A program made the translations under genes and the position numbers. A stretch of DNA of 64,000 nt, taken from Promethearchaeota archaeon. GTDB taxonomy: Archaea > Asgardarchaeota > Lokiarchaeia > Sigyniarchaeales > SOKP01. The stretch spans positions 32,001 to 96,000 of the forward strand of contig JAEOUA010000006.1 of the NCBI GenBank assembly GCA_016839555.1, written 5' to 3'. Below are positions 31,385 through 58,207 of the stretch, in pieces. The stretch's first letter is position 1, and the number at the start of each line of letters is the position of its first letter. Under the pieces are notes generated by a model. The model ran no database searches and had not been told where the DNA came from. It saw only the letters and a list, made by a program, of their open reading frames with translations.

Positions 31385-33003
31385 TTTAAGTTTCCTCCTA
31401 AAAGATAGATATATTTAGAGAGTTTAATTTGTCTTTTAAGTATATTATTAGCAGAGATTTGGATTTTCCATCGTTTTTCTAATGCTTTTTTCAATTCGGT
31501 CATAATTTGAGAATGTATTTTTTCCGTAAGTTTTGCTTCTAAATTTGCTAATTTATAATAGCAAAACAGCCCTTGGCACGGCCCCATACCCTGGCGTGTT
31601 CTTCTTCTATAATCGTCTAATACTCTTACATTAAGGTTTTCCCTTACCCAAGATAATTCAGGCTCGGTCACATTTTCACATTCACAAATTTTTTGTGGTC
31701 CCTCATCAGAAGAAAAAGGATCTAAACAAGTTTCGCACATCTCAAAAATTTCCTTATAAAAGGTACCCCATTTAAATTGCATATCAAATGCAGTCTTTTT
31801 ATCAACATGAAGCTCCTTCTCGAATACTTTTTTAGTTATTACCCTATCCCCTCCAGGTAGTGGTAGCTCGGCAGTTTGGCATTGCGCATTTATGTCAAGT
31901 TTTTCGGCGACAAGATCCGATATTTGTTCTGCCATTAACCGATAGGTTGTTAATTTTCCTCCTATAATAGTTAATAGACCAGAATATCCTTCCTCTTCAT
32001 AATCAATGATATCAAACTTGCGAGAAGCTTCTCTTAGAGGAGTATCACTGGCAACTAAAGGGCGTGCTCCAGAATAGAATCTAATTATTCGATGTTTTCT
32101 TACGGTTGGAATTAAATATTCGCCTTGATTTAAAATATATTCAATTTCATCTTTAGATGCCATTAACCTATCTAAATCTTCTAATTCCACGGGTTTTGAA
32201 GTTGTTCCCAATATTATAGAGTTATGGCTTGGAACAATAATATCTGCATCTCCGGGTTTTCTCAAACGGTTAATTAAATGGCTTACTAAACGATCTTTGA
32301 TGACAAGAAGAGTTCCCATAGTAGGAGCTATTCTAAGCGGGTGTGAAAGTTTTAAGTCCTTTTCCAGATATGAGGCCCATGGACCTGTTGCGTTAATTAC
32401 TATATCTGCGTAATAGGACTTCTTTTTATTTTTTAAAAAATCAAAGCATTCTATTCCTATTATAGTCCCATCTTTAATGAGTAATTTTTCTGCTTTTGTA
32501 TAGGTCTTAATTTTAGCTCCATGGAGTTGAGCATCATAAGCATTATAAAAGGTCAAAAGAAAGGGATCAATATATCCATCTTTTACTCGAAAAACACGTT
32601 GAGTTTCAGGATTGCAGTTCGATTCATCTTTCAGAAAGGCTTCTGGCTCGATTTCCTCGCACCATACACCAGCTTTTTCACATTCTGTATTAAAGATATC
32701 CCCGTAGTTTACATCTTCATCATTTACTGCCATAAAATAACCCCCACAAGCTTCGGTTATATGTGGTGCAATGTGCAGAAGTATTTTATTTTCTAGAGCA
32801 CACTCGGTTGCAGCTTCTTTATCTTTATATACATATCTTGCTCCTGAGTGCAACATAGCATGACATCGGCCAGTCGTTCCCTCACTTAAATCATTTTTTT
32901 CTACTAATAGGACTTTGAATCCTCTAAGACATAAGTCTCGGGCAATACCAACCCCTGTAATTCCTCCTCCAACTATAAGACAATTATATTTATCTTTACT
33001 CAT
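31381..33003 (-). CDS. glpA: Anaerobic glycerol-3-phosphate dehydrogenase subunit A
   Basis: GGGITGVGIARD; GTTGRCHAMLHSGARY; GGKLTTYRLMAE; C-terminal CECE...RTRQGMGPCQGLFC (BFD-like Fe-S). Confidence 0.93.
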   Translation of the reverse strand: MSKDKYNCLIVGGGITGVGIARDLCLRGFKVLLVEKNDLSEGTTGRCHAMLHSGARYVYKDKEAATECALENKILLHIAPHITEACGGYFMAVNDEDVNYGDIFNTECEKAGVWCEEIEPEAFLKDESNCNPETQRVFRVKDGYIDPFLLTFYNAYDAQLHGAKIKTYTKAEKLLIKDGTIIGIECFDFLKNKKKSYYADIVINATGPWASYLEKDLKLSHPLRIAPTMGTLLVIKDRLVSHLINRLRKPGDADIIVPSHNSIILGTTSKPVELEDLDRLMASKDEIEYILNQGEYLIPTVRKHRIIRFYSGARPLVASDTPLREASRKFDIIDYEEEGYSGLLTIIGGKLTTYRLMAEQISDLVAEKLDINAQCQTAELPLPGGDRVITKKVFEKELHVDKKTAFDMQFKWGTFYKEIFEMCETCLDPFSSDEGPQKICECENVTEPELSWVRENLNVRVLDDYRRRTRQGMGPCQGLFCYYKLANLEAKLTEKIHSQIMTELKKALEKRWKIQISANNILKRQIKLSKYIYLLGGNLK

Positions 33004-33078
33004 AATATATATCAATGCTCAATAATACTGTATTTTAAATATTAATTACAAAAAATTCATCTCAGAGTCTAAAATTTC

Positions 33079-33810
33079 TTAATTGTAGAAAATTAATATT
33101 CTCATTGCGATAAAAAAGACCAGTTGAATCACAACAAACCAAGGACTATGTGGACTTTCCCCGAGTTTAATTCGCTCTTTTTCAGGTATCATTAGAAATG
33201 TTAGGGCAAATATAAACGAAATCGAAAACCATGCAATATAATTCTGAATAGGTACATTGAATGGATCACTCGTTAATTTCCATGTCCAATAGTTCAATCC
33301 TATTGCGACAGGTTCCATGATATAATCAAAAAAAGTTGCCAGAAGCCCTACAATGAACGAAGAAAGCAATACTTTAGGGAAATTTTTTATTGGTGATTTG
33401 AATAGCTTTTCTATAAGCCATTCAGAAAACAACACTAATGAAAAGATAATAATTACCCAATTCAATCCTATTATCACTGGTACATCGAACAGCATAGGCC
33501 CAAGGACATTGCCATAATAATACGGTCCAAATACTAATGAATATGCAACACCAAGTACTTCCAGAGTAAAAGTAATTAAATACGCAATGAGAATCCAGAG
33601 GATTACATATTTTTTGTTATAACACTTGTGAATAGCCCAAATACCGGAAATTAATAATACATATGGAGTCAATACAATCATAAGCGGATAACTGGACTCT
33701 GAAAAATGACTGATAATTCCTACCGTAAAAAAAATCGATAATATTATTACTTGGAATCTCCAATCCAACAATATTGATTTAAGTTTAATTTTAGTTTTAA
33801 TTTCATTCAC
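33079..33810 (-). CDS. cruF: Carotenoid 1,2-hydratase (CruF family)
   Basis: EVLGV..VFGPYYYG..LGP..FDVPVIIGLNW; DYIMEPVA..YWTW; VPIQNYIAWF; located in a crt operon. Confidence 0.82.
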   Translation of the reverse strand: MNEIKTKIKLKSILLDWRFQVIILSIFFTVGIISHFSESSYPLMIVLTPYVLLISGIWAIHKCYNKKYVILWILIAYLITFTLEVLGVAYSLVFGPYYYGNVLGPMLFDVPVIIGLNWVIIIFSLVLFSEWLIEKLFKSPIKNFPKVLLSSFIVGLLATFFDYIMEPVAIGLNYWTWKLTSDPFNVPIQNYIAWFSISFIFALTFLMIPEKERIKLGESPHSPWFVVIQLVFFIAMRILIFYN

Positions 33811-33812
33811 AT

Positions 33813-35294
33813 TTAATCACCCGAAAATTTTTCGATAAGGTTCGCACATATTTTCCCCGATGAGATCACCAGCGGCATCCCCCCTCCTGGGTGAGCAGAG
33901 CTACTGCAGAAGTATAATCCTTTTATATTTTTACTTCTATTCCTATGCCGCATAAATGCAGACATTTTTGTATTCGAACTAATGCCATAAAGACTTCCAT
34001 AGGTGGATCCCGTTCTTTTCTCAATATGGGGTGGGGTAAGGATTCCTTCCGTTTCGATATGAGATTCTATATTAGTGCCTAACCGTTTTGACAGGAGATT
34101 AATGGTAGCTTTTCTTGCATTAGAAACTATTTCGTTCCAATTTTGATTACAATCTGCCGGTGCATTAAGAAGAACAAACCAGTTTTCACACCCTTCAGGA
34201 GCATCAGAAGGAGTTAATTTTGAAGTTATATTAACATATACCGTTGGTTCTTCTGGCATTGTTTTCTCTTCGAACATCGCTTTAAATTCGGCAGGATAAT
34301 TAGATGAAAAGAAAATATTATTGACCGAGAGCTCCTCAAAAGTTCTATTAATACCCCAATAGAACACTATACCGCTCGAACTAGGTTCCAATTTTTTGTA
34401 TCTTTTGGCTTGTTTCAGATCTGGTAAATCAAGAAGTTTATCGTATGTAGAGAGCACATCAGCATCAGATACAACTGCATCATAGTCTTTATCAGCGTAT
34501 TTCGTTGATATTCCACGTAACTTCTTATTCTGAAGATTTATTTTTTCGACTCGCTGATTAAAATAAAATTTAACACCTAAATCTACTGCAGCTTTATGAA
34601 TTTTTTTAGGGATTTCATAAATACCTTCTCCAATTCCATAACCACCACCAATATATTCTATAAATGGGATGATAATCATAGTTGCGGGTGTAAGAAAAGG
34701 ACTTGAACCATTGTAAGTAGCATATCTGTTAAAAAGTTGAACTATACGAGGGTCTTTAAAATATTTTTTATTAATTTTATTTAAAGTGCTAAAGGGATGG
34801 ATGCCTGCGAATCGAACCAACTTTAAAAGGGTAGAAGGCTTCAATAAAGTTCTTATTTCATGAATTGGCTGCGTGAGAAAAAGATTTCCACCTAATCGAT
34901 GCGCTTTTTCAGCTTCTTTTAAATATCTTTTTAGGGATTTTTGACTTCCTGGCGCTATTTTTTCCAGGTCTCGACCAAAATTATCGAGATCAGACCATGC
35001 TTTTAGATAGGTCCCGTCTGAGAGAAAATAGGTACAAATCTCTTTCAGCTTGACTAAGGTGAGTTCCTTATTGATATCTTTTCCTGCAGTTTTGAATACA
35101 TCCTCAAAAACCCAAGGCATTGTCACCAGTGAGGGACCAATATCAAATCTATATCCATCAAACGTTTCTTCGGCTGCTTTACCTCCAGGAAAGGATTGAG
35201 CTTCATATACATCTACATTCCATCCTTTAGATTTTAGATAGATTGATGCGGATAATCCACCTAGCCCTGCACCAATAATCGCAGCCGTTTTCAT
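33813..35294 (-). CDS. crtD: Phytoene desaturase family, probable 1-hydroxycarotenoid 3,4-desaturase
   Basis: Likely start MKTAAIIGAGLGGL at 35294, 1 nt after the crtY stop; FDIGPSL; FNRYATYNGSSP; HPGGGMPL; adjacent to cruF. Confidence 0.75.
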   Translation of the reverse strand: MKTAAIIGAGLGGLSASIYLKSKGWNVDVYEAQSFPGGKAAEETFDGYRFDIGPSLVTMPWVFEDVFKTAGKDINKELTLVKLKEICTYFLSDGTYLKAWSDLDNFGRDLEKIAPGSQKSLKRYLKEAEKAHRLGGNLFLTQPIHEIRTLLKPSTLLKLVRFAGIHPFSTLNKINKKYFKDPRIVQLFNRYATYNGSSPFLTPATMIIIPFIEYIGGGYGIGEGIYEIPKKIHKAAVDLGVKFYFNQRVEKINLQNKKLRGISTKYADKDYDAVVSDADVLSTYDKLLDLPDLKQAKRYKKLEPSSSGIVFYWGINRTFEELSVNNIFFSSNYPAEFKAMFEEKTMPEEPTVYVNITSKLTPSDAPEGCENWFVLLNAPADCNQNWNEIVSNARKATINLLSKRLGTNIESHIETEGILTPPHIEKRTGSTYGSLYGISSNTKMSAFMRHRNRSKNIKGLYFCSSSAHPGGGMPLVISSGKICANLIEKFSGD

Positions 35295-35295
35295 T

Positions 35296-35982
35296 TTATT
35301 CGTCTCTTTTAAAGCTGAATTTATCCCTGAAGAGGAAATAGAAAATAAGATAAAGACTAATAAGAGTAAAACTATAAAAAAAATCTTCAATCGGTATGGA
35401 AATGACTCTCAGACCTATTATTGCATCACTATTGTAGGATACAATAGGCAAATAAGTAAAAATCCCATTAAAAATTAAAAATGGAATATAAGTCAAAATT
35501 AATCCAATTAAAGTCCAGCTGGATTGAAATTTTTCGTATGCTACCAAGCCTATTAATAGCATCGTAATAAAAAAAACTATTCCAATAAGCACTGTATAAC
35601 CTTTATCTAAAAACAAGATTAAAGGTAAAATCCCAATTGAACTAATAATAATAAATACATATCTCGGAATATGAAGGATCCTCTCTTTTGTATAGGCTCG
35701 CACACACTCATATATAAAAACAGTAGCATATGGAACCGCAATAAAAAAAATCCACTCACCTATAGGAAGATTAAATATTTTTAAAGTTCCTGCATAAGTT
35801 TCTGAGAAGGACCAATGCCCAATCTCGGTTACGATAATATCCCAAATAATATAACTGCTACTAACCACCAGCATACTCAAAAGCAAAGGGGGCCATCTAC
35901 GCCAAAATCCCACCTTTTTATCAAAAGATAAAAGAAAGGGAAATATAATTACTAAGAAATTCAACCAAAAATATAGTGCCAT
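35296..35982 (-). CDS. crtY: Membrane-type lycopene cyclase (fused CrtYc/Yd-like)
   Basis: Two repeats: WD...W.F...LPIGEWIFF and NG...Y...IPIEDFFY; multiple TM helices. Confidence 0.85.
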   Translation of the reverse strand: MALYFWLNFLVIIFPFLLSFDKKVGFWRRWPPLLLSMLVVSSSYIIWDIIVTEIGHWSFSETYAGTLKIFNLPIGEWIFFIAVPYATVFIYECVRAYTKERILHIPRYVFIIISSIGILPLILFLDKGYTVLIGIVFFITMLLIGLVAYEKFQSSWTLIGLILTYIPFLIFNGIFTYLPIVSYNSDAIIGLRVISIPIEDFFYSFTLISLYLIFYFLFRDKFSFKRDE

Positions 35983-36270
35983 ATACTTTTAACCTCATTA
36001 TCTTATAATTCTATATAAAATAATACTCACTTTTGCAGCTTCTTTAGCTTTATATACATATATCGAAGCTGTGTGGCATCATATTTAAAATATTATTTAC
36101 AAAGAATTACACCCCATTTAAAAGCATTCGTTTTGTAAAATATAGATAAATACTTAAAAACCGATTTATTTAAAGCTCTTCTGAAAATAGTTCTATTTGA
36201 ACTGAATTTGAAACTAAGATTTAGTATTGTATACTTTCTTTCGTATTATCATTCCCTTTTTATTTTAATC

Positions 36271-37362
36271 CTAAAATAAATGCTCATCTACTATTTTAGA
36301 GCCATATTCTGCCTGGTGTACTCTTACTATATTATTTTCTGGAATGCCGATATTTTGGATCATATTTTGTACAGCATCTAGATCTTCAGTTCTACACAAA
36401 CAATGAATATTTGGGCCTGCATCAACGGTGAAATAACATTCAATCCCTTCTTTCTCTTTTTGCTTAACACCCTCTTCAACCATCTTATAAGTTTGGAAAA
36501 AATTATTTCGAGTATTTACTACCGCCTTTATTACCTTCAATGTATTTGGTTTCCAATAGAACAACGGGGGTTCCGAGGTCATCATAACACTATGCATATA
36601 CAAACAACTTTTCTCGGAGATCTCTCCCACAGTAGTAAAATCATCATTTTGAATTGCTTTTTTAATTTCTACGGCTTGTTTCTGGGATTCATTTATTTTA
36701 ATCTGATTGAAAACACTGGAGTGTGCCGCTTCTTGTCCTATATCAGAACTCACCTCTTTTTCTCCTCTATCGATTACTGCAATTACCGCAGCTATATTGA
36801 ATTCATTACATGGACATATTTGTTCTGCATAAGAAGTATCGTGAGAATATCCTTTATTCCAACATACGAATCCTCCATGAAGAGAGCGAGATGCGGAACC
36901 AGAACCTAATCTTGCATATTTTGAGAGTTCTATATTGTCTAAATTAAGGTTTAACGCATCAGCAGCACTAGTAGCGAGCGCAGCGAATGCAGATGATGAT
37001 GACGCTAACCCTGCAGCTGTCGGAAATTTATTTTGACTGACCATTTTAAAATTTAAAGTTGTACTCGCTAATTTTCTTAACGCATCAACCACTTTTAATA
37101 TTCTTTTCATCTGAATCTCATTAAAGGGAACTATAATCTCATCAGTTTTCAAAAAGCCCGTATCTTCATCATAATGTTCAGAAAATTCAATGGTGGTATG
37201 AGTAATCAATTCGATTCCTGATTTGGCAGTATTGATTGATTCCTTCGTCATGCTAACGCTGTCATTTGTAGGAATATTAAGGTGTGGTGGATGATCTCGA
37301 GATTTACCCCAATATTTTATCAGAGCAATATTTGGGTGTGCGAATGCTGAAGACTTTCCCAT
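36271..37362 (-). CDS. mvaD: (Di)phosphomevalonate decarboxylase
   Basis: AHPNIALIKYWGK; PTAAGLASSSS; RLGSGSASRS; TVDAGPNIH. Confidence 0.9.
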   Translation of the reverse strand: MGKSSAFAHPNIALIKYWGKSRDHPPHLNIPTNDSVSMTKESINTAKSGIELITHTTIEFSEHYDEDTGFLKTDEIIVPFNEIQMKRILKVVDALRKLASTTLNFKMVSQNKFPTAAGLASSSSAFAALATSAADALNLNLDNIELSKYARLGSGSASRSLHGGFVCWNKGYSHDTSYAEQICPCNEFNIAAVIAVIDRGEKEVSSDIGQEAAHSSVFNQIKINESQKQAVEIKKAIQNDDFTTVGEISEKSCLYMHSVMMTSEPPLFYWKPNTLKVIKAVVNTRNNFFQTYKMVEEGVKQKEKEGIECYFTVDAGPNIHCLCRTEDLDAVQNMIQNIGIPENNIVRVHQAEYGSKIVDEHLF

Positions 37363-37532
37363 TTTCTTATTTTATCCTCTTTTTATAATAAGCTATAAAT
37401 ATTATTCAAATATTATTGCGATTGTATTAATAACTTATGTTAATAATTAATATATTCATCTATAAATAAAGGTATTAAGTAAAAGAGGTTCTAATCTTAA
37501 GATTTTTTTAGAAAAGCTCTTCCAAGAATTAC

Positions 37533-37554
37533 GAACCCCTTATACAAAGGGTTC
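37533..37554. promoter_or_regulatory. Inverted repeat (candidate operator) between divergent mvaD and HMG-CoA reductase
   Basis: GAACCCCTT-ATAC-AAAGGGTTC, with arms matching at 8 of 9 positions; GC-rich within an AT-rich spacer. Confidence 0.4.
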
Positions 37555-37640
37555 CATTTTCAACCCAATTATATTTAGGAAAAATCAATTAATAAATTAT
37601 AACCGAAGAAACTTTTTAGATATGAAGAACATTTTTACAT

Positions 37641-38804
37641 ATGAGTATGTATTCTTCAGAAATATCTGGTTTTTACAAGCTTTCTATAGAGGAAAGACTC
37701 AAACTTATTAAGGAAAAAGTTGGTTTAAGCGATGAAGAGACCAAGATTCTTAAGAATTTTGGTTATTTCCAACCAGAACAGATGGATATATTAATTGAAA
37801 ATGTAATAGCTAGTTATCAATTACCTTATTCAATAGCATGTAATTTTAAAGTGAATGGAAAAGATTATTTGGTTCCGATGGTCATAGAAGAGCCTTCAGT
37901 TGTAGCTGCCGCATCCAATGTGGCAAGAATGGCAAGGAAATTAGGAGGATTTCATAGTAAGAAAATTACACAGGTGATGATAGGACAAGTTCAGATTGTT
38001 AATGTGAAAAATATGGATGATGCTGTGAAAAATATTGAGATCCATAAGGAGGAAATTATTCGCCTCGCAAATGAAAAGGATCCTATTCTCATTAAACTGG
38101 GAGGAGGGGTTGAGGATTTAGAGATTCGACCTATTGATACTATAAAAGGTCCAATGATTATAGTTCATTTGCTTGTGAATGTCTTGGATGCAATGGGAGC
38201 AAACGCCGTAAATACAATGGCAGAAACAGTCGCTCCTTACTTGGAAGAATTAACTGATGGGAAAGTATATCTTCGGATCATCTCTAATTTAGCCACCCAT
38301 AGGATGGCAAAATGTAAAGCAACTTTTGATAAGGATATGTTAGGGGGTGCTGAAGTGGTTGAAGGGATAATGAATGCGTACGCTTTCGCCAAAGCAGATA
38401 TTTTTCGAGCATCTACCCACAATAAAGGGATTATGAATGGAATTATAGCCCTCACTTTAGCAACCGGTAATGATACTCGAGCAATAGAAGCCGGTGCTCA
38501 TACTTATGCCGCTTTAAACGGATATTCCCCACTAAGTACTTTTGATGTTGATTCAAATGGGAATTTAGTTGGTGAATTGGAGCTTCCCCTTGCGTTGGGG
38601 ATTATAGGTGGACTCACAAAGACACATCCATTAGCAAGAGTGTCTTTGAAAATTCTTGGAATTGATAACGCAGAAGAGCTAGCTCAAGTTGCTGTAGCTC
38701 TTGGACTCTGTCAAAATGTAGCGGCTTTACGTGCGCTAGCCTCAGAAGGGATACAAGCAGGACACATGAGGTTGCATAAAAGAAAGGAACAAAAAAAGAA
38801 TTAA
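37641..38804 (+). CDS. mvaA: HMG-CoA reductase, class II
   Basis: IENVI; EEPSVVAAAS; DAMGANAVNT; RIISNL; THNKGIMNG; GNDTRAIEAG; EGIQAGHM. Confidence 0.93.
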   Translation: MSMYSSEISGFYKLSIEERLKLIKEKVGLSDEETKILKNFGYFQPEQMDILIENVIASYQLPYSIACNFKVNGKDYLVPMVIEEPSVVAAASNVARMARKLGGFHSKKITQVMIGQVQIVNVKNMDDAVKNIEIHKEEIIRLANEKDPILIKLGGGVEDLEIRPIDTIKGPMIIVHLLVNVLDAMGANAVNTMAETVAPYLEELTDGKVYLRIISNLATHRMAKCKATFDKDMLGGAEVVEGIMNAYAFAKADIFRASTHNKGIMNGIIALTLATGNDTRAIEAGAHTYAALNGYSPLSTFDVDSNGNLVGELELPLALGIIGGLTKTHPLARVSLKILGIDNAEELAQVAVALGLCQNVAALRALASEGIQAGHMRLHKRKEQKKN

Positions 38805-38849
38805 AGCTAAAATTTAAATGTATTTTATTTATTATCTATTTTTTACTGC

Positions 38850-40358
38850 TTAAACTAAATCTTTTTTAACATCATCTACAATCTTCTCACAAGCCAGTTG
38901 AGCAGAGATGATTGTAACGGGAACTCCAACTCCAGGATGGGTGTAATGCCCCGCATAATAGAGATTATTAACTTTATCACTTTTATGATGTGGTCTAAAT
39001 AATGCAGTTTGAAATAAAGTATGTGCCAACCCTAAGGCAGTTCCCTTATAGGCATTGAATGTTTTATTAAAATGTTCATGTGCAACAATTCTTTTTACTT
39101 CGATAGAGTCCCTAAATGATTCTCCAGTTATATTTTCAACTTTTTGAAGTATTTTATCAAAATATGGTTCACGATGGGATTCCATATCTTCAAGATCGGG
39201 AGATACTAACACGAGAATAGTCATGAGTTCCTTTCCTGGTGGAGCAAGTGATGGATCGGATTTAGAAGGAACAGTTATATAAATAGAGGGATCATCTGGC
39301 CATTCGGGATTTTCAAAAAGTTGATCGAAATATTTATCCCAATCTGAATTGAAATAGAAATTATGATGTAAAAAATTATTAAGCTTCTTGTTTAGACCAA
39401 GATAAACTAGGAATGCGGAAGGAGCGATCATCTTCTTTTTCCAGTATTTTTCGGTATATGACCTATATTTTTTATCCAATAATTCCATCTCTCCATGATG
39501 ATAATCTCCAGTACTTAAAATGATATCTGCTTCAAACTCTCCTTTATTTGTAATGATTTTTTTAGCTTTTTTGTCTTCTACCACGATCTTGGATACTTCT
39601 GTGCTGAATTCAATTTTTGCTCCTTGCTCTTGGGCAAGCTTCATTATCCCATCAACGATGGTTCCAAAACCTCCCATAGGATACCAAATTCCAAGGTTCA
39701 TATCAACATGGGCAAGCATAGAATAGACTGCAGGACTAGTTGGCGGAGAAGCGCCCACAAATGCCACATGATATTGAACTATTTTACGTGCTTTATCGCT
39801 GGTAAAAAATTTTTTTGCGTATTTATTCAGTTTCTTAAAAATATGTAGCTTTAATCCGTCTATAATGAGTGTTTTATCCAATAAGTCCCGAACACTCCAA
39901 TAATCCCTGTATAGAAACTTGTTTACCGCAATATCATACATTTTTTGGGAGGATTCTATAAAGTTCTTTAGCTTTTTACCTCCATCTTTTTCAAAGGTGT
40001 CGAATAGCTCGTAATTTTTATTCATATCGTCCATAATGTCTAATGATTCACTCTCACTGAAGAACACTCGATAATGGGGATTTAAACGTATTGTTTCATA
40101 ATAATCTTCAGGTTTTTTACCGAATTGGGCAAAAAGATTATCAAACGCTTCTAACATCATATACCATGACGGCCCCATATCAAAAGTATATCCATCTTTT
40201 TTCCACACCATAGCGCGTCCTCCTGGTCTGTCATTTTTTTCAAGAACGGTCACATCAAAACCTTCTTTAGCTAAAAGCGCAGCAGATGAGAGCCCGCAAA
40301 ATCCGGCGCCTATAACAAATACTTTTCTTCCTTTTATTTCATTCATTGTTATTTTCAC
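38850..40358 (-). CDS. crtI: Phytoene desaturase
   Basis: IGAGFCGL; FDMGPSWY; WYPMGG; GLAHTLFQTA.FRP; HPGVGVP; overlaps the crtB stop. Confidence 0.88.
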   Translation of the reverse strand: MKITMNEIKGRKVFVIGAGFCGLSSAALLAKEGFDVTVLEKNDRPGGRAMVWKKDGYTFDMGPSWYMMLEAFDNLFAQFGKKPEDYYETIRLNPHYRVFFSESESLDIMDDMNKNYELFDTFEKDGGKKLKNFIESSQKMYDIAVNKFLYRDYWSVRDLLDKTLIIDGLKLHIFKKLNKYAKKFFTSDKARKIVQYHVAFVGASPPTSPAVYSMLAHVDMNLGIWYPMGGFGTIVDGIMKLAQEQGAKIEFSTEVSKIVVEDKKAKKIITNKGEFEADIILSTGDYHHGEMELLDKKYRSYTEKYWKKKMIAPSAFLVYLGLNKKLNNFLHHNFYFNSDWDKYFDQLFENPEWPDDPSIYITVPSKSDPSLAPPGKELMTILVLVSPDLEDMESHREPYFDKILQKVENITGESFRDSIEVKRIVAHEHFNKTFNAYKGTALGLAHTLFQTALFRPHHKSDKVNNLYYAGHYTHPGVGVPVTIISAQLACEKIVDDVKKDLV

Positions 40359-41194
40359 TTCTTTCTAATCTTAAATATGTTTTTTAAAACAGTTCTAATT
40401 ATCTTTCCTTTAGAAGGCTTCACTTTTTCTTCATATACAATAAATGGGTTTTCTTTGATTTTTAACGCAGTCCATTTATACATATCTGAAGCTGTTTGAA
40501 TAGGGATCCAATATCTTCTTGGGATATATTTAAATCCATTTTCTGCTTCTTCTTGCCACTTAAGATATAGTTCGATTTGATCCCTAAAGAATCTCTCAAA
40601 TTCCTCTTTATTGTTCATCGCTTCTTCTTTCGTTAAGTTTTTTAGATCATAATCCCCTAAAGGAAAATACCGTCTTCCTAACTTAATATCTTCCTTAATA
40701 TCTCTAATAAAATTAATATACTGCATTGCTCTCCCAAGTCTCTCCGCAGCAAAATATGCATTTTCTGATAAATCAAGAATTTTAGCCATAAATAGCCCAA
40801 TAACTTCCGCAGACCCATAGATATATTCAAGTGTTTCATCTAATGAATTATAAACTTTTTTTGTAAGATCTAATTCCATTGAATGCAGAAATGCATCAAC
40901 CCACTCAGGTTTAAACTCTTTTCTTCGCATTAGATCAACGAAATATTCAATAACAAAATTATCAATTTTTTTACCTGAGAGTGCTTCTTCATACAAACGA
41001 CGAAAATTCAAAAATTCCTCCCGTTGTTGGGGTATTGTATCAACATAATTGTCAGCAACCCTCACAAATCCATATAAGATAAATACATCTTCTCTTACTG
41101 ATTTTGGAAAGAATATACTACTATTAAAGTAAGTAGTGCTGCCTTTTCGAAATATTTCTTCGAATTTCTTTTGAATATCTCTTGATAATACCAT
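40355..41194 (-). CDS. crtB: Phytoene synthase
   Basis: YGFVRVADNYVD; YIYGSAEVIG; LGRAMQYINFIRDIKEDIKLGRRYFP. Confidence 0.93.
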   Translation of the reverse strand: MVLSRDIQKKFEEIFRKGSTTYFNSSIFFPKSVREDVFILYGFVRVADNYVDTIPQQREEFLNFRRLYEEALSGKKIDNFVIEYFVDLMRRKEFKPEWVDAFLHSMELDLTKKVYNSLDETLEYIYGSAEVIGLFMAKILDLSENAYFAAERLGRAMQYINFIRDIKEDIKLGRRYFPLGDYDLKNLTKEEAMNNKEEFERFFRDQIELYLKWQEEAENGFKYIPRRYWIPIQTASDMYKWTALKIKENPFIVYEEKVKPSKGKIIRTVLKNIFKIRKK

Positions 41195-41665
41195 TATGTT
41201 AATTTTTTAAAACTAATTTTTATAATTTGTTTTTATTAAATATTAATTTTCAAATAAGATCAGAATAGAGAAAGAAAGTTAAAATATAGTGAGAACATAG
41301 AAAAATTGAAAAAAAGGCTTTAAATGATATTTTTTAAACTCTAATATCTCATATAGGTTCATAATGCTATAAAACTATTGATTTAGATAGGAGAATCAAA
41401 TTTTTGAGAACTTAATAAATAATTATGATAAAAATTTATATGCAGTCACCTTAAGATTTAATTATCTGAGAAGATAAACATAAAGCAAAAATGAAGAGAT
41501 CACCTTCAAAATTTAAAATATATACATTAGATTTTGACATCTCGAAAAATTTATAGTTTAATGATGGATATAGCAAATTCTATTTTACAAATTATTGAAA
41601 CAGAACACGTAAATATAATATAAAACAAAGTTTTAAATTTATCCTTATTTTATAATAAAAATAAT

Positions 41666-42181
41666 ATGGTAAATCTTTTTGATTATTTGCCTTATCCATA
41701 CGGAATAATAATTTCTATAGGTGCTATTATCTTTGCTACAGTATCAATGGAAGGTGTAGCATGGTTTCTTCACAGGTACGTGATGCACCAATTTGGTTGG
41801 TATCTTCATGAGGACCATCATCGATATACAAAAGGAAGATTCCAAAAGAACGATATTTTTGCCTTGATTTTTGCGATATTATCAATAATATTAATTATTC
41901 TTGGATTAAGAGTATACAATCTTCTCTTCTGGTTGGGAATGGGTGTTTCTATATATGGTTTGGGTTATTTTCTCTTTCACGATGTATTATTTCACAAGAG
42001 GATAAAAAATCACTATCGACCAAAAAAAGAGTATATGAAGAGAATATTCGATGCTCACTCATATCATCATCAAACTACTAATTCAAAGGGATCGGGGGGA
42101 TATTCATATGGTTTCCTCTATGCTTCTAAGAAATATAGCACTTTAATAAAAGATTTACAAATAAAAAAGAAGAATGTATAA
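41666..42181 (+). CDS. crtZ: Beta-carotene 3-hydroxylase (non-heme di-iron)
   Basis: His boxes HRYVMH, HEDHH, HDVLFH and HSYHH; MEGVAW; FQKND.F; SYGFL. Confidence 0.88.
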   Translation: MVNLFDYLPYPYGIIISIGAIIFATVSMEGVAWFLHRYVMHQFGWYLHEDHHRYTKGRFQKNDIFALIFAILSIILIILGLRVYNLLFWLGMGVSIYGLGYFLFHDVLFHKRIKNHYRPKKEYMKRIFDAHSYHHQTTNSKGSGGYSYGFLYASKKYSTLIKDLQIKKKNV

Positions 42182-42187
42182 TAAAAG

Positions 42188-43810
42188 ATGACCGAATCAA
42201 AAAATGATGATTTTTTCTTTAATGTAGGTATTGATTCAATGGGTTTCTACACATCAAAGTATTACGTGGATCTGAGAGATTTAGCTGAAGTTAGAAATGT
42301 CGATCCAAACAAGTATTTAAAGGGTCTTCTGACAAAAGAAATGCGTATTCCAGGACCCGGAGAAGATATTGTAAGTATGGCGTTAAAAGCCGGCCAAAAT
42401 GCTTTGATGAGAGGAAATATTGATCCAAGTGAGATCGATGCCATATTCCTGGGTACAGAAACGATGACATACGCTGTGAAGTCTGTATCTAATATTCTTG
42501 CAGAAATCTTGAACACTTCACTAAATTGTATAACACAAGATGTCTATAATGCATGTGCGGGTGAAACTCTAGCAGTTTTAAACGCTATAGGACTCATTAA
42601 TAACGGAATAATCAATAAAGCACTCATTATCGGAGCAGATATTTGTAGTTATGAGTTGGAAAGCCCTGGAGAGCCTACTCAAGGAGCGGCAGCGGCAGCT
42701 GTAGTCATTACCAAAAATCCTCGAATAGCAAAATTTGGCAAAAGATTTGGAAAATTTACTGCTAACATAAATGACTTTTACAGATTGCCTTATGAGGATC
42801 ATCCTGTTGTGTTTGGGCAGTACTCTATAAATTCATATATTAGATTTCAGCAGGGAGCATTTGATGATTTCTTCAAAGAAGTGGATTCTATTATACCCGA
42901 TTATTTAGCTTTCCATTCTCCTTTTGCAAAATTACCCTTAAAAAATATCCAGAACTTACTCCTCACTAGATGGGACATATTGAAAAAAATATTACTCGAG
43001 AAACCTATTAATACTGCATCTTCGGTAAAAGTCCAAGAAGAGGCTGTCGAAAATGTGATTAAACTACTTGATAATGTTTTAGAGCCCCTAAATGAAAAGG
43101 AAAAGTTTGTCAACGTCAATGAGATAAAAGAAAAATTACTTAAGAGTATCACACATAAACTCCTGCCAAGTCTCAACGTCCCAATGTCTATCGGAAATAT
43201 GTATTCTGCATCTATATGGTCTCAATTAATTTATCTATTGGAAAGTGTGGTAGACAAAGATGATTTAATATATTTTGGATCTTACGGCTCAGGAGCAACT
43301 TGTATTTCTGGTATGCTGAAAGTTATGCCAGAAGTTTCAGAATTCCGCAAAAAATATCCAACAGTGAACAATTTTATCCAAAATAAAGAGCGTAAATCTA
43401 TTGAAGAATATGAAAAATTAAGAGACAAAAATGATGCTCAAGAAGTTATTTATGCCCAAATTGAACCACACCCTACCGAAGAGAATCATTTTATCGTATT
43501 AAATATGTGTGAAGGAGCTTGTATATCATCAAAATTGAATGGATTAGAGTTTTGTCCAAAAGGGAGACACGAAACTTATCAAAGAAAGCTTCCTTTATAC
43601 GCGGTGGTAAAAGAAATTCCTCTCCAGAATATTGTTGATGAGGATCTATTCAGTTCCTCAATAGTGAGAGTATCTGAAGATGTTAAAAAAGGTGATACAG
43701 TTGAATATAACCTTCTTCGAGCCGGAAAAAATGAATCTATGGTTTGCATAGAGAGTGGTTATATTAATTGGATTCCTACCTACAAACCGATCACTCATCC
43801 ACTCACATAA
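42188..43810 (+). CDS. HMG-CoA synthase with C-terminal DUF35/OB-like extension
   Basis: GTET (Glu), NACAG (Cys), AFHSPF (His), GEPTQGAAA, GNMYSAS, GSYGSG; about 130 extra C-terminal residues. Confidence 0.88.
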   Translation: MTESKNDDFFFNVGIDSMGFYTSKYYVDLRDLAEVRNVDPNKYLKGLLTKEMRIPGPGEDIVSMALKAGQNALMRGNIDPSEIDAIFLGTETMTYAVKSVSNILAEILNTSLNCITQDVYNACAGETLAVLNAIGLINNGIINKALIIGADICSYELESPGEPTQGAAAAAVVITKNPRIAKFGKRFGKFTANINDFYRLPYEDHPVVFGQYSINSYIRFQQGAFDDFFKEVDSIIPDYLAFHSPFAKLPLKNIQNLLLTRWDILKKILLEKPINTASSVKVQEEAVENVIKLLDNVLEPLNEKEKFVNVNEIKEKLLKSITHKLLPSLNVPMSIGNMYSASIWSQLIYLLESVVDKDDLIYFGSYGSGATCISGMLKVMPEVSEFRKKYPTVNNFIQNKERKSIEEYEKLRDKNDAQEVIYAQIEPHPTEENHFIVLNMCEGACISSKLNGLEFCPKGRHETYQRKLPLYAVVKEIPLQNIVDEDLFSSSIVRVSEDVKKGDTVEYNLLRAGKNESMVCIESGYINWIPTYKPITHPLT

Positions 43811-43889
43811 TTTTAAAGATTATTTAAGCTTATTTGCTACAACTCGAGGATCAAAACCGAAAAAATCGCAGAAAAAAATAAAAAAAAGT

Positions 43890-44993
43890 TTATATTCGTT
43901 TAAATTCTATTTTCCTTTCTTCTATCCATTCTTTTAGAGAAGAACTAATTACAACAGGGGCTTTTTTTAATTCATCAATATTTTTACTCCCAGTTAATAG
44001 CATTGTAATTTTTAATTCTCTAAAGGTTTGTTCAATAAACGTTTCTATGGAATCCTGTCCTTCTAACGCAACCATAAGAAATGGTCTAGCTAAGGCTGCA
44101 AAATTTGCTCCAAGCCTTAGTGCTTTGGCGATATCAATTCCACTTCTAATTCCTCCGCTGCCAATTATTTGAATGGATGAAGGTCTATTTACCACTGACT
44201 TCACCTCAAGGATACTAGCTGCCGTTGGAATCCCCCAATCCCAAAATAGTTTGCCTAATTCCCTTTTAGATACTTCCCCATATTTTTTTGCTCTATAAAA
44301 TTCCACAGCCACCCAACTAGTTCCTCCTACCCCAGACACATCAATAATATTAATTCCGATATCAAACAATTGTTGAGCAATCTCCTTAGAAATTCCGCAA
44401 CCCGTTTCCTTAATCACTATGGGAACATCTAACTGATCCTTGAGCATTTGTATTTTTTCAATTGCTCCAGAAAACATATTATCACCTTCAGGTTGAATGA
44501 CTTCTTGAATCACATTGAGATGTATCGCTACAGCGTCCGCATCGATATTATCTATAATTTCTTGGACATACTTAAAACTTTCGGAGGTTGTAATTTGAGC
44601 GATTCCAATATTTCCAACGATAGGTATGTCTGGAGCGCATTCTCTTACCACAGAAAAAGAACTTTTTGTTTCTGGATGCTTAAGGATAACTCTTTGACTT
44701 CCCACCATCATTGGGATTTTATATTTTTGAGCCGCTTTTGCAAGTGAAACATTAATTTTTTTTGTCAATTCTGTTCCACCAGTCATTGCTCCAACGAAAA
44801 CTGGTGCTGTTATTGATTTTCCTAAAAATTCACAAGAAAAAGTAAGATCATCTAAATTTAATTCTGGTAGGGTATTATGCACGAATGTGACATGCTCAAG
44901 CCAAGTTGTTTGGTTGCTTTCAACTTTCTCTTGACTTACGAGTAAAATATGTTCATCCTTTCTATTTGTAATTGGAATTTTTCTTATTTCCAT
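43890..44993 (-). CDS. fni: Type 2 isopentenyl-diphosphate isomerase
   Basis: RKDEHI; GAMTGG; VGSQR; HLNVIQE..QPEGD; KETGCG; GGTSW; WGIPT; SGGIRSG. Confidence 0.95.
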   Translation of the reverse strand: MEIRKIPITNRKDEHILLVSQEKVESNQTTWLEHVTFVHNTLPELNLDDLTFSCEFLGKSITAPVFVGAMTGGTELTKKINVSLAKAAQKYKIPMMVGSQRVILKHPETKSSFSVVRECAPDIPIVGNIGIAQITTSESFKYVQEIIDNIDADAVAIHLNVIQEVIQPEGDNMFSGAIEKIQMLKDQLDVPIVIKETGCGISKEIAQQLFDIGINIIDVSGVGGTSWVAVEFYRAKKYGEVSKRELGKLFWDWGIPTAASILEVKSVVNRPSSIQIIGSGGIRSGIDIAKALRLGANFAALARPFLMVALEGQDSIETFIEQTFRELKITMLLTGSKNIDELKKAPVVISSSLKEWIEERKIEFKRI

Positions 44994-49387: not shown

Positions 49388-50629
49388 TTATAAATATTTT
49401 TCAAATCTTTTAGTAAGCCAATTAATAGTTTCTAAACTTTTCTTATGATCGGGGCCTTCTATATTCATTAATCGTAGAAAAGGCATTACCATATCAAAAA
49501 AGATATATTTTTTTTGGGAATCCTCATCATTCTCAAGAATTCGATCAAATTTTTCAGTGAAATCCTTTCTTAACGATTGCAATTGCTTATATTGCTTTTC
49601 TGTTATGAAATATAGACTCATAGAGGTCTCTAAAATCGTGTTGATTATATTAGAATACATTTCTGAGGATTTTGACTGCTTTAATGATAAAAATGTTAAG
49701 GCAGTAAGTCCTTGCTTACCCTTTGGAAAATCTTCTATGAAGGTTTGCAAAAGTTTATTTAGCTCTTCATATATTGATAAAAGAAATACTTTTTTTCTAA
49801 GTTTCATCCTTAATTTCATAATATCCTTTCCTGAACTTGTATCAAAAGATTCATATGTGAAAATCTCTGGATTATATAGAGATTCTTTATTTAAGGCATA
49901 ATATTGTTTATCAATAGAACCCGGCGTTATCTCATATTCTTTTGTATATGATTGTATAATACCCAAATATATTAACCTTCTTGTATACCGAGACATAGTT
50001 GCCTTACTTTTCTTAAGATAATTTGAGATTTCTGCTAAGCTTAATTCTTTATAAGTAGATAAGAGCATGATTATCTTCAGGTTTAAGTCGTTCTTAAATA
50101 ATTCTAAAGCTTTCAAATCGATAAGAACATCTAACATCTTATTGATTGCTTCTTTAAATTCTTTAGTCTTGTTCTCTGAAAGTTCTACATAACTAGTAGC
50201 ACCCTCATTCTTAGCAAATTCTATATAATCCCTTCTGTTTGTAGTTTCTTTGCTTTCTGATTTATTTTTCTTATTGGCAATCAGAATAAAAGGACAAATG
50301 TTATCAATATTTTCCCTAATGTTTATTAATTCTTTTTTGCAATACTCAAATGTTTTAGGATCTGAAGGATCAAATATCAAAATAGCTGCATTTGTTCCTT
50401 CGAAATATTTACTGTGTAAAAATTCAAATTTTTTATCTGCTTTAAAGTCCCAAAATTGAAGGAAGTAATCATTACCATATCTATTAATTTTATGTTTATA
50501 AAACTCAACTCCAATCTTATCTTTTTGATTAATAAATGATTCTAAGAATTCATTAAGTAATGAAGTTTTTCCAGCATTCTCTTTACCTATAATGATAATT
50601 TTAAATGGGATTGCGTCCATTTCTTTCAA
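49388..50629 (-). CDS. Degenerate Rab-like GTPase fused to an ArsR-type HTH domain
   Basis: FKIIIIGKENAGKTS; IGVEF; LQFWDFKA; ANKKN; then LSLAEISNYLKKSKATMSRYTRRL. Confidence 0.8.
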   Translation of the reverse strand: MKEMDAIPFKIIIIGKENAGKTSLLNEFLESFINQKDKIGVEFYKHKINRYGNDYFLQFWDFKADKKFEFLHSKYFEGTNAAILIFDPSDPKTFEYCKKELINIRENIDNICPFILIANKKNKSESKETTNRRDYIEFAKNEGATSYVELSENKTKEFKEAINKMLDVLIDLKALELFKNDLNLKIIMLLSTYKELSLAEISNYLKKSKATMSRYTRRLIYLGIIQSYTKEYEITPGSIDKQYYALNKESLYNPEIFTYESFDTSSGKDIMKLRMKLRKKVFLLSIYEELNKLLQTFIEDFPKGKQGLTALTFLSLKQSKSSEMYSNIINTILETSMSLYFITEKQYKQLQSLRKDFTEKFDRILENDEDSQKKYIFFDMVMPFLRLMNIEGPDHKKSLETINWLTKRFEKYL

Positions 50630-54295: not shown

Positions 54296-54565
54296 TTCGG
54301 CAAATCTTTCCCAGAGATCGACAGAATGATTATTAGGTTTTGTGATAGTATCATCTCTAAACTATATATTCTTAAAATTATCTACAACCAAGTTTAAATA
54401 CTAATAAGAAATTGTTAATTCGGCGATAAAAATAATAAATATTTAAGGTAGTATATAGATATATTAAAGTGATGATTAAATTAGATTCAGGGATTTATCC
54501 TTTCGATATTCTTAGATCCGACAATTATCTATTTAGCATCTACATCTAATCGAAGAGTGATTATA

Positions 54566-57500: not shown

Positions 57501-58201
57501 TGAAAACCAGAGGTAAGAGTTACTTTATAATAGATGAAGATATGATAGAGAGATATTTTCTACAGATTGACTCGGAAGAGAATGAAATTGAAGATAAAAA
57601 TGTAATGAAATATATTAAATATGGTGAGGAAAATGTATTACCAAAAAGCAAAACACTGAAATCTAAAAATATATGGTGGAAATTTACAAATAGAGATGCT
57701 GCAGATTTATTAGCTCCGTGTGGTTATGGTAAAACAACCTTTTGTGCTATAAATAAAGCAAAAGCAGTAACAAGTAATAGTTATGTAGAAATAAGACTAG
57801 TTGATAAAGATTATTTAACCCCTCTATTTTATTTCTTGAATTCTGCTATTGGGTGGTTATTTTTGGAAATAATTGGAAGACATTCTCTTGGGGGTGGTAT
57901 GTTAAAAGTAGATCCAATAGAATATCGTCAATTATTGGTTTTAAAAAAAGAGCTATTTCAAGAACAAACTATCCCGCCAAATCGTAAAATAAAATCAGTT
58001 TTTATCGAATGTGGATTTAATCCTTCTAAACCAATAAGAGAGCAAATACCTAATCCAATTAATGAAAGGCATATTATAGATGATATTATTTTTGAAAAAC
58101 TTAAATTAAACGAAGAAGAAAGAAATGAAGTTTATTGGAGCGTTTGTGAACTAATAAAACAAAGAACTGATAAAGCTAAAAGTCTTAAAAAAAATAAATA
58201 A
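54566..58201 (+). CDS. Eco57I/type IIG-like N6-adenine DNA methyltransferase with C-terminal target-recognition region
   Basis: LLNRIMF; FLNGGLF; GIFYTPR; DPACGSGAFL; GDSL; FDIVIGNPPYV; FITSNSWL. Confidence 0.9.
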   Translation: MEVSKETRMRISEYLSKIKSAKDLFELFRTLNYPEDIVFDISAKRKKETFEFRKDDDEKIKEIYSILSIENKTHIFLLETTSIAPSFIRSVTATFDRQYLNFLLIITLDYSEIVFVFPNREKINGDQHKLKLTKLIINTTEIYYTDIQTISTLLYEEGIKRRQLWRQWKSAFSVERVTKNFFDDYKKIFFLLKNEFSNQGIPKKESHEFTLQLLNRIMFVYFISKKQGWLNTKRFMKWFWESYKKQEKYDSDEFYEIWSKQLFFKAFNNQSNLLSDLPSEIKKEISNFPFLNGGLFTSNDLDALEIKISDRLYEKIHKFYEKYNFTIKEDMPLEEEVAVDPQMIGYVYESLANVAEEIYDRHDLGIFYTPRVEVDFMARRVLIEYLSKNLENIPKEKLYHLIFDPPEDKKKIINDFDEKIWRRIEEILDNLSAVDPACGSGAFLVGLLNVLTELYHLIYQQLNRKSTDFELKKRIIQYSLYGVDIMPWAIHAAELRLWLQLMVETELKKEELRKYPLLPNLDLNLRIGDSLVQEIGGQYFNLRTSDLEASIKKKLLILKDEKRNYFDNLPRAKFKTPLEIKEEELRLFEEIIESRLNILKREITNLKNNIKRAKSQKDLYGKVIVDEKKVKALQKQIDEKERFILDLNEIKRLIDIPGKKPFIWDIDFAEIFGEKNGFDIVIGNPPYVKQDDIAPFNKMKSEITSKEKQLYKDKLIKSVINQFPVITSIAKKCDYFIYFYFHGLSLLNEKGAFCFITSNSWLDAKYSKSLQEFLIKYVPIIAIYDNAKRTFKHALVNTIISVFGSPLIVERRIAGLKVIKKRDWKMLDYTAKFVMFKKPFEEVINTKNLLYIEKIELKVQGSEIVDIIENIIRTEDYRVFPITQKNLLEEGWVYPDNYKKSEGFFKKGSYNGEKWGKYLRAPDIYFNIIEKGKENLVLLDKIAVVNEGRPTGANNYFFMPIQIAKKFNIENEFLLNGIMKTRGKSYFIIDEDMIERYFLQIDSEENEIEDKNVMKYIKYGEENVLPKSKTLKSKNIWWKFTNRDAADLLAPCGYGKTTFCAINKAKAVTSNSYVEIRLVDKDYLTPLFYFLNSAIGWLFLEIIGRHSLGGGMLKVDPIEYRQLLVLKKELFQEQTIPPNRKIKSVFIECGFNPSKPIREQIPNPINERHIIDDIIFEKLKLNEEERNEVYWSVCELIKQRTDKAKSLKKNK

Positions 58202-58207
58202 TAATGG

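Follow-up and report, generated by a model that had tools for sequence, protein, structure and literature searches.

A mosaic carotenoid gene island with a second mevalonate gene set in Lokiarchaeia and its predicted C40 xanthophyll product

The genome of a Promethearchaeota archaeon of the Lokiarchaeia (hereafter G000) carries an island of ten contiguous genes at positions 33079-44993 of the window, the 64-kb stretch of DNA that was analyzed. The window spans bases 32001-96000 of a 604-kb contig, and positions are given in window numbering. The island is probably an accessory element of Lokiarchaeia that joins a mosaic, complete C40 xanthophyll pathway to a second, divergent set of isoprenoid precursor genes. 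This second set now supplies the only 3-hydroxy-3-methylglutaryl-CoA reductase (HMGR) and type 2 isopentenyl diphosphate isomerase (IDI-2) found in the genome. The enzymes and their chemistry are known, and the genes are already annotated in public metagenome-assembled genomes (MAGs). What is new is the lineage that hosts them, the mosaic make-up of the island, and its union with a second set of mevalonate genes that takes the place of native ones. Published work on Asgard archaea reports genes for linear carotenoids only (PMC12137139, PMC11193907), and no description of cyclic or hydroxylated carotenoid genes in Lokiarchaeia was found in the literature searched.

A sequence-only reading of this DNA had placed ten carotenoid and mevalonate genes here. 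Each matches its proposed family in the open reading frame listing and in Pfam and NCBIfam profile searches, with adjusted starts for crtD and crtI. The genes of the island are as follows.

33079-33810, minus strand: cruF-like carotenoid 1',2'-hydratase gene, 243 aa; PF04240 at 90.8 bits against a cut-off of 25, residues 45-238
33813-35294, minus strand: crtD, 1-hydroxycarotenoid 3,4-desaturase gene, 493 aa; NF042421 at 497.2 bits against a cut-off of 500
35296-35982, minus strand: crtYcd, fused heterodimeric-type lycopene cyclase gene, 228 aa; PF18916 at 81.6 bits, TIGR03462 matched twice (91 bits against 39)
36271-37362, minus strand: MVD-type (di)phosphomevalonate decarboxylase gene, island copy and sole genome copy; TIGR01240 at 249.5 bits against 171
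37641-38804, plus strand: class II HMGR gene, island copy; TIGR00532 at 480.7 bits against 260, class I models at 27 bits
38850-40358, minus strand: crtI, archaeal-type phytoene desaturase gene; NF058655 at 642.3 bits against 640, TIGR02734 at 474 against 238
40355-41194, minus strand: crtB, phytoene synthase gene, 279 aa; PF00494 at 161.6 bits, NCBIfam CrtB equivalogs at 91 against 500 (below the cut-off)
41666-42181, plus strand: crtZ, di-iron beta-ring 3-hydroxylase gene, 171 aa; PF04116 at 39.7 bits against 31, no NCBIfam equivalog match
42188-43810, plus strand: HMG-CoA synthase (HMGS) gene, island copy, 540 aa; PF01154 and PF08540, 6 nt after crtZ
43890-44993, minus strand: IDI-2 gene, island copy; TIGR02151 at 419.2 bits against 281

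None of the six crt reading frames is interrupted, and the catalytic signatures of the encoded proteins are preserved. CrtD has a GxGxxG motif at its N-terminus, and CrtI has VIGAGFCG in its N-terminal FAD fold. CrtYcd contains PIGEW and PIEDF, one PxE(E/D)-like motif in each half. CrtB has the Asp-rich motifs DNYVD (residues 48-52) and DIKED (165-169), and CrtZ has four His boxes (HRYVMH at 36, HEDHH at 48, HDVLFH at 105, and HSYHH at 131). Orthologues of CrtZ carry the name beta-carotene (3-)hydroxylase. The start of crtD was revised from 35390 to 35294 because all homologues are 493 aa long, and the gene then does not overlap the cyclase gene. The start of crtI is probably 40346, giving a protein of 498 aa that matches the length of its homologues.

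The two desaturases are well separated, the CrtI paralogue reaching only 242 bits on the CrtD model NF042421. CruF scores below all three NCBIfam equivalogs (TIGR03460, 51 against 155; NF041333, 50 against 300; NF045693, 36 against 400). It belongs to the Spirochaetota/Bacteroidota branch of CruF, which is not known to have a characterized member. Every Asgard copy of crtD, and most bacterial copies including those of the spirochaete operons, has cruF directly downstream. From its gene context and its position in a tree with crt-linked CrtB proteins, CrtB is predicted to make phytoene and not squalene.

The gene content suggests the following route. CrtB would form phytoene, which CrtI would convert to lycopene. 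CrtYcd would close a beta-ring to yield gamma-carotene and/or beta-carotene. CruF would hydrate the open end to give a 1'-hydroxyl group, and CrtD would add a 3',4' double bond, yielding 1'-hydroxytorulene. CrtZ is predicted to be an O2-dependent 3-hydroxylase of beta-ionone rings. With one ring the outcome would be a saproxanthin-type monocyclic xanthophyll, and with two rings it would be zeaxanthin. A saproxanthin-like and/or zeaxanthin product is thus predicted, as in the sequence-only reading, and it is chemically sound. The island holds no genes for a ketolase, a 2'-hydroxylase, a glycosyltransferase, or a C50 elongase. That reading had also noted the lack of a LyeJ-type prenyltransferase; none is present in the cluster, and two archaeal cluster-linked queries found no similar UbiA gene in G000. 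With a lycopene cyclase and CrtZ present and no LyeJ, a cyclic C40 carotenoid would be expected and not an acyclic C50 compound of the bacterioruberin type.

An alternative for the product is that it is mainly dicyclic, with beta-carotene passing to zeaxanthin through CrtZ while CruF and CrtD act only on minor acyclic or monocyclic intermediates. Fused CrtYcd cyclases can cyclize both ends of lycopene. The closest relatives of CrtI and CrtZ are encoded in archaeal clusters of the cyclase-crtI-crtB-crtZ type, without CrtD and CruF, and Thermoprofundales with such clusters are predicted zeaxanthin makers (PMC9585477). However, crtYcd-crtD-cruF is intact and tightly coupled in all eight genomes that carry the island, which argues that the open-end modifications are under selection. 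In bacteria, the same cassette goes with monocyclic 1'-hydroxy pigments, e.g., flexixanthin and myxol (PMC10784355), and one island genome (G022) retains the cassette yet lacks crtZ. A mainly dicyclic output is considered unlikely.

Another CrtI-family flavoprotein is encoded outside the island (14487-16037, plus strand, 516 aa). It was considered as a ketolase or an extra desaturase and rejected, as it scores below all NCBIfam cut-offs. Most Loki genomes, whether or not they carry the island, encode similar paralogues that are 22-27% identical to CrtD. Because of this distribution, the flavoprotein probably stands outside the pathway and its substrate is probably not a carotenoid made there.

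The precursor half of the island is distinct from the native mevalonate genes of Lokiarchaeia. In crt-free relatives, the native cluster is composed of hmgS, an MvaD-like decarboxylase gene, class II hmgR, UbiD, the large and small AcnX genes, mevalonate kinase (MVK), isopentenyl phosphate kinase (IPK), idi2, and geranylgeranyl diphosphate synthase (GGPPS), which make up the archaeal route. Identity between the island and native proteins is 61-70% for HMGR, 44-49% for HMGS, 36-41% for IDI-2, and ~25% for the decarboxylase. In the HMGR tree, the island types of three genera form one clade (support 100) apart from the native HMGRs of those genera, with the spirochaete HMGR far removed. In the IDI-2 tree, the native proteins form clades of their own with none among the island copies; the branch joining the island copies is unresolved. 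The mevalonate genes of the island thus appear to be deep Loki-type paralogues that travel with the crt genes.

The island HMGR is the single PF00368 match in G000, and its IDI-2 is the single tblastn match. An unbroken stretch of a second contig, C4 (~126600-140500, locus L122), encodes GGPPS, UbiD, the large and small AcnX proteins, IPK, MVK, and a native-type HMGS to which the island HMGS is 45% identical. This stretch contains no hmgR, idi2, or MvaD-like gene. With the only copies located in the island, the island genes took over two housekeeping steps: HMGR and IDI-2 of the island displaced the native copies in G000. The HMGR types present differ among relatives. G005 has both types, G001 (same genus, crt-free) has only the native type, and G002, G004, and G006, like G000, have only the island type. 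The native cluster on C4 is rearranged and reduced, and several of its genes share only 36-59% identity with their counterparts in G013, which belongs to the same family. Island and native Loki HMGS proteins are both ~540 aa long, with a C-terminus ~130 aa longer than usual (residues ~410-540) that contains CEGAC...CPKGRH and has no Pfam match.

HMGS, HMGR, the MVD-type decarboxylase, and IDI-2 of the island would probably raise and co-regulate the flux to isopentenyl diphosphate and dimethylallyl diphosphate. This coupling is proposed because the four genes are placed beside the crt genes. As the sole copies, HMGR and IDI-2 would also feed membrane-lipid synthesis. The geranylgeranyl diphosphate synthase, mevalonate kinase, IPK, and AcnX/UbiD steps would come from contig C4. 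The sequence-only reading had seen no gene for GGPPS, mevalonate kinase, rhodopsin, or Blh in the window, which agrees with the searches; GGPPS and MVK are on C4, and neither a rhodopsin nor Blh was found anywhere in G000. Its proposal that acquired crt genes are wired into the precursor supply of the host stood in part. The crt genes are acquired and interleaved with mevalonate genes, but the partner is the second, divergent mevalonate set and not the native one.

The substrate of the island decarboxylase may differ from that of classical MVD enzymes. Its best PDB matches, 6n0z and 5v2l, score nearly equally and do not separate the diphosphomevalonate from the monophosphomevalonate type. G000 has five GHMP-family genes: MVK, the island MVD, a galactokinase-like gene, beta-RFAP synthase, and one unassigned gene of 422 aa. 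No clear candidate for a phosphomevalonate kinase was found in G000. With IPK present, the decarboxylase may act on mevalonate 5-phosphate.

The survey of Asgard synteny that the sequence-only reading had suggested found the island in seven other Loki MAGs: G002, G004, G005 (Baja_Loki1), G006, G022, G248 (Hel_238_bin105), and G271. These copies show 73-89% identity and come from three genera. In all, the island is present in ~8 of the 400 Asgard genomes searched, and CrtZ in 7 of the 400, all of one family. Of six genomes from the genus of G000, four encode CrtD orthologues (74-81% identity), as does one genome from a second genus, and a contig scan added two. The Baja_Loki MAGs were assembled from the top 1 cm of a salt lagoon, in a report that mentions neither carotenoids nor mevalonate (PMC6737245). 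A CrtD at 45% identity is encoded on a short contig (L011, G031:C400) from another family of the same order. It falls outside the main Asgard clade and inside the same bacterial group, and may be a separate acquisition.

Tblastn maps show that the seven-gene block mvaD, hmgR, crtI, crtB, crtZ, hmgS, idi2 is constant, apart from G022, which lacks crtZ. The adjacency of crtZ and HMGS is retained in six genomes. The position of crtYcd-crtD-cruF varies. It lies between mvaD and glpA in G000, next to idi2 in G022, G248, and G271, and on a separate contig from the seven-gene block in G002, G004, and G006. In G005, the cassette is found past glpB, and MVD, glpA, and glpB are immediate neighbours. Two non-coding elements of the island bear on its organization.

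36033-36108, no strand assigned: decayed duplicate of the 5' part of glpA and its upstream region, between crtYcd and the MVD gene
41611-41640, plus strand: A/T-rich promoter-like element, conserved, 26-55 nt upstream of the crtZ start

The first element matches the glpA region in two parts, 36033-36061 against 32808-32836 (28 of 29 nt) and 36082-36108 against 33031-33057 (24 of 27 nt). Together with the mvaD-glpA-glpB order of G005, the remnant fits insertion of the cassette at the crtYcd-mvaD point in G000. The segment would thus mark the entry of crtYcd-crtD-cruF into an ancestral mvaD-glpA-glpB arrangement. The second element is the sole well-conserved block of the crtB-crtZ spacer in six island-bearing genomes and is consistent with a shared promoter of the archaeal TATA/BRE type. 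The gaps within crtYcd-crtD-cruF are 1 and 2 nt, and that between crtZ and HMGS is 6 nt, as the sequence-only reading had stated. Because the gaps are short, four transcription units are suggested: crtYcd-crtD-cruF, crtB-crtI, crtZ-hmgS, and the divergent pair mvaD/hmgR.

Per-gene trees, also suggested by the sequence-only reading, point to a mosaic origin of the crt half. In the CrtD tree, rooted on CrtI, the CrtD clade is apart from the CrtI outgroup (support 100), and nine Asgard sequences form one clade. Its sister (100) is a sequence from contig L016, whose genes for GGDEF and LacI proteins and for a bacterial-type homoserine-kinase-like protein beside threonine synthase identify it as bacterial. 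Both belong to a clade of Spirochaetota, Verrucomicrobiota, and Kiritimatiellota (98), while 52 Bacteroidota sequences form a clade of their own (96). The approximately unbiased (AU) test rejected a joint clade of Asgard and Bacteroidota CrtD (log-likelihood difference 92.8, p 1.8e-5). CrtYcd and CruF are placed in the same way. Asgard and L016 sequences of CrtYcd form a clade (100), and the CruF of G000 groups with eight other Asgard copies and L016 (100). CrtD and CruF thus both lie within carotenoid clades. CrtB groups weakly (86) with L016 and Marispirochaeta, and not with archaeal CrtB. Marispirochaeta aestuarii and L016 both carry crtI-crtB-crtYcd-crtD-cruF operons.

CrtI and CrtZ are placed differently. 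The nearest non-Asgard named relatives of CrtI are from Bathyarchaeota (63%), followed by Thermoplasmatota, 'Thermoplasmata archaeon M8B2D', Altiarchaeota, and Methanofastidiosum. In the CrtI tree, the Asgard sequences join the Bathyarchaeota-labelled one (99) and then the archaeal clusters L123 and L124 (100), apart from spirochaete-type CrtI. Union with the spirochaete type was rejected by the AU test with a log-likelihood difference of 154, for a constraint group defined after the tree was seen. The Asgard CrtZ clade (100) is nested in a group that includes L097 and L099, and Bacteroidota CrtZ is separate (99). This group is made up of ~153-aa proteins with 55-65% identity, encoded in cyclase-crtI-crtB-crtZ clusters on low-GC archaeal contigs. 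The clusters adjoin UvdE, photolyase, or heliorhodopsin genes. The Thermoprofundales label of L097, L099, L123, and L124 is drawn from context, an archaeal-type TyrRS, and the clustering of CrtI with 'Thermoplasmata archaeon M8B2D'.

In these trees, the crtYcd-crtD-cruF cassette traces to Spirochaetota-like bacteria, and crtB probably does as well. By the same evidence, crtI and crtZ are affiliated with archaea from sediments (Thermoplasmatota/MBG-D and Bathyarchaeota-labelled). The bacterial placement of CrtD, CrtYcd, and CruF and the archaeal placement of CrtI and CrtZ make the crt half a mosaic from at least two donors. The sequence-only reading had taken Bacteroidota as its model. They remain a functional analogue, but not the donor, given the spirochaete-like nesting and the rejected joint CrtD clade.

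The likely role of the pigment follows from what the host has and lacks. CrtZ needs O2, and CrtI-type desaturases need O2 or a quinone. Neither a haem-copper oxidase (COX1) nor cytochrome bd was found in G000 in searches whose controls worked. Photolyase and UvdE were also not found in G000. Because CrtZ would depend on O2 and Baja_Loki1 comes from surface sediment, the host is pictured as an anaerobe that meets O2 and perhaps light. In a genome with no terminal oxidase, rhodopsin, or photolyase found, the pigment would most likely act as a membrane antioxidant or photoprotectant at the sediment or mat surface.

The sequence-only reading had listed a rhodopsin antenna among the possible roles, and a broader form of this idea is that the island mainly serves rhodopsins, by supplying beta-carotene from which retinal is made and/or a hydroxylated carotenoid that acts as an antenna on heliorhodopsin or schizorhodopsin-like proteins. 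Island-bearing sisters do have rhodopsins. G002, G004, and G006 encode heliorhodopsin and a type-1 rhodopsin of ~205-220 aa (PF01036 at 75-95 bits, e.g., G006:C156:93873-94445), and G248, G271, and G022 encode heliorhodopsin. Hydroxylated carotenoids are antennas on Heimdallarchaeial rhodopsins (PMC12137139), and related archaeal crt clusters adjoin heliorhodopsin (PMC9585477). However, neither rhodopsin family was found in G000 or G005 by the same searches that were positive in these relatives, and where rhodopsin genes occur they are unlinked to the island. Of 135 genomes of the family, 73 encode heliorhodopsin, most of these being island-free, and 12 encode a type-1 rhodopsin. A retinal-forming enzyme was not found in G002, G004, or G006, and searches for a Blh/BCD or RPE65-type cleavage enzyme were negative in G000 and five island genomes, the BCD search having had no positive control. 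A mainly rhodopsin-related function is very unlikely, and an antenna role in G000 itself was not borne out, but in G002, G004, and G006 the island may have some functional tie to rhodopsins.

Slightly less probable still is that the crt genes are inactive relics or enzymes of non-C40 substrates, and that the mevalonate genes alone matter. Several of the proteins fall under equivalog cut-offs, the host is an anaerobe without oxidases, and the island HMGR and IDI-2 would be needed for lipids even without a pigment. Against this, the six crt frames are intact with their catalytic motifs kept, the genes share 58-88% identity over three genera with short intergenic gaps, and the crtZ promoter region is conserved.

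The Loki-type Asgard host proposed from the sequence alone was confirmed. The assembly is 3.74 Mb in 12 contigs with ~30% GC. The island contig ends in an archaeal SSU (16S) rRNA fragment, and the island lies at least 33 kb inside it. The closest homologues of CrtD, CrtZ, and CrtI (65-92% identity) are named Lokiarchaeota or Promethearchaeota, with a few bearing the submitter labels 'Hermod-', 'Hod-', or 'Thorarchaeota'. The flanks hold genes usual in Asgard genomes. That the cluster derives from bacterial DNA and entered an Asgard MAG through mis-assembly or mis-binning, as the bacterial nearest relatives of four of the six crt genes and the estimated contamination of 6% could suggest, is extremely improbable because the only HMGR and IDI-2 of the genome sit in the island, its HMGR is Loki-type (sharing 61-70% identity with native Loki copies but 38% with the spirochaete one), its GC is close to that of its surroundings (0.33 for the cluster and 0.31 for the window), and eight independently assembled Loki MAGs share it. 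The contig is not chimeric, and the island is a genuine accessory part of a Lokiarchaeia genome.

Typical Asgard features in the flanks include Ras/Roc-family small GTPase genes at 8560-10026 (plus strand) and 49388-50629 (minus strand), the second fused to an ArsR/MarR-type winged helix. At 54557-61390 (plus strand), an Eco57I/MmeI-type methyltransferase gene (1214 aa) is followed by a PLD-SNF2 helicase gene (1060 aa), probably a restriction or defence module. Scans of the 64-kb window for tRNA genes and Rfam families gave no matches.

Several points weigh against a functional xanthophyll island as described here. The product is predicted from homology, and the sequence of the cyclase does not tell monocyclic from dicyclic output. 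CruF, CrtB, and HMGS are below NCBIfam equivalog cut-offs, and CrtD is 3 bits short. The haloarchaeal enzymes behind the CrtI model also perform 3,4-desaturation (PMC11946383), so the desaturation pattern could differ. CrtI, CrtD, and CrtZ need O2 or another acceptor, while the genome looks strictly anaerobic, and the lack of a detected photolyase or UvdE tells against a role purely in light protection. The trees come from quick searches with homologues sampled by similarity. G000 is an estimated 92% complete, so that the 'only copy' and 'no rhodopsin' results fall short of proving absence. Between genera, island genes are 72-89% identical, compared with 71-78% for the housekeeping genes PurB and TyrRS. 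Horizontal spread within Lokiarchaeia and old inheritance with many losses fit this equally well.

Asgard archaea serve as models of the archaeon from which eukaryotes arose, and how they relate to oxygen and light is a matter of debate. The island points to regular O2 contact in organisms without terminal oxidases, and its product is a candidate lipid biomarker for mats and surface sediments. It is also a clear example in which parts of bacterial, other archaeal, and own-lineage origin make up an Asgard pathway, which then displaced native housekeeping genes. This pattern of displacement bears on the origin of mosaic, eukaryote-like metabolism. A bolder and doubtful extension is that the island is a mobile 'oxygen-edge' module among Lokiarchaeia. 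Such a module would supply an O2-dependent antioxidant xanthophyll together with its own precursors, and its MVD-type decarboxylase and IPK would bypass AcnX (Fe-S) and UbiD (prenyl-FMN). If so, an otherwise strict anaerobe of the lineage nearest to eukaryotes could continue isoprenoid synthesis and shield its membrane where surfaces are oxic or lit, and an acquired module could take over a housekeeping pathway, as for HMGR and IDI-2.

Among known systems, the haloarchaeal bacterioruberin pathway is composed of CrtB, CrtI/CrtD, LyeJ, and CruF. The island shares with it the match to the CrtI model and a CruF-family hydratase.

The saproxanthin and flexixanthin pathways of Bacteroidota follow the same logic of CrtB, CrtI, CrtYcd, CruF, CrtD, and CrtZ. 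They also share with the island the predicted backbone, 3,1'-dihydroxy-3',4'-didehydro-gamma-carotene. The island differs in lacking the CrtW ketolase, the 2'-hydroxylase, and the glycosyltransferase, and its host is an archaeon. The CrtD, CrtZ, CrtB, and CrtYcd of Bacteroidota are in separate clades, and the Bacteroidota loci sampled contain no mevalonate genes.

The operons of Spirochaetota (Marispirochaeta aestuarii and UBA5200) contain the closest relatives of CrtD, CrtYcd, CruF, and CrtB, with an identical crtYcd-crtD-cruF order. Pigmented spirochaetes are reported to produce 1'-hydroxytorulene-type carotenoids. These operons differ from the island in having no crtZ, a CrtI of another clade, a reversed crtI/crtB order, and mevalonate genes only 28-38% identical to those of the island. 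Spirochaetaceae UBA5200 (L020, DHVU01000019.1) likewise interleaves mevalonate with crt genes, in a supercluster of idi2, hmgS, crtI, crtB, crtYcd, crtD, and cruF, followed by hmgR and mvaD. This association looks convergent, or the mevalonate halves may have been exchanged.

The subgroup E clusters of Thermoprofundales (MBG-D, Thermoplasmatota) encode heliorhodopsin, CrtZ, CrtB, CrtI, a cyclase, photolyase, and UvsE (PMC9585477). The L097/L099-type layout matches these clusters, which supports the assignment of those contigs to Thermoprofundales. In Thermoprofundales, the island CrtZ has its closest relatives (65%) and the island CrtI close ones (51-60%). These organisms too are archaeal, sedimentary hosts with O2-dependent xanthophyll genes. 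Their clusters lack the spirochaete-type CrtD-CruF cassette and the mevalonate genes, and are linked instead to heliorhodopsin and UV repair, which were not found in G000.

Within the Asgard archaea, Heimdallarchaeia also carry carotenoid genes. 'Ca. Kariarchaeum' has crtB, crtI, a lyeJ-like gene, and crtD, and its xanthophylls are proposed to be taken from the environment (PMC12137139). Deep-sea Heimdallarchaeia have a lycopene pathway (PMC11193907). These relatives share phytoene synthase and desaturase with the island, but their genes extend to linear carotenoids only. The island of Lokiarchaeia goes further, with genes for a cyclase and a hydratase as well as a second desaturase and a ring hydroxylase.

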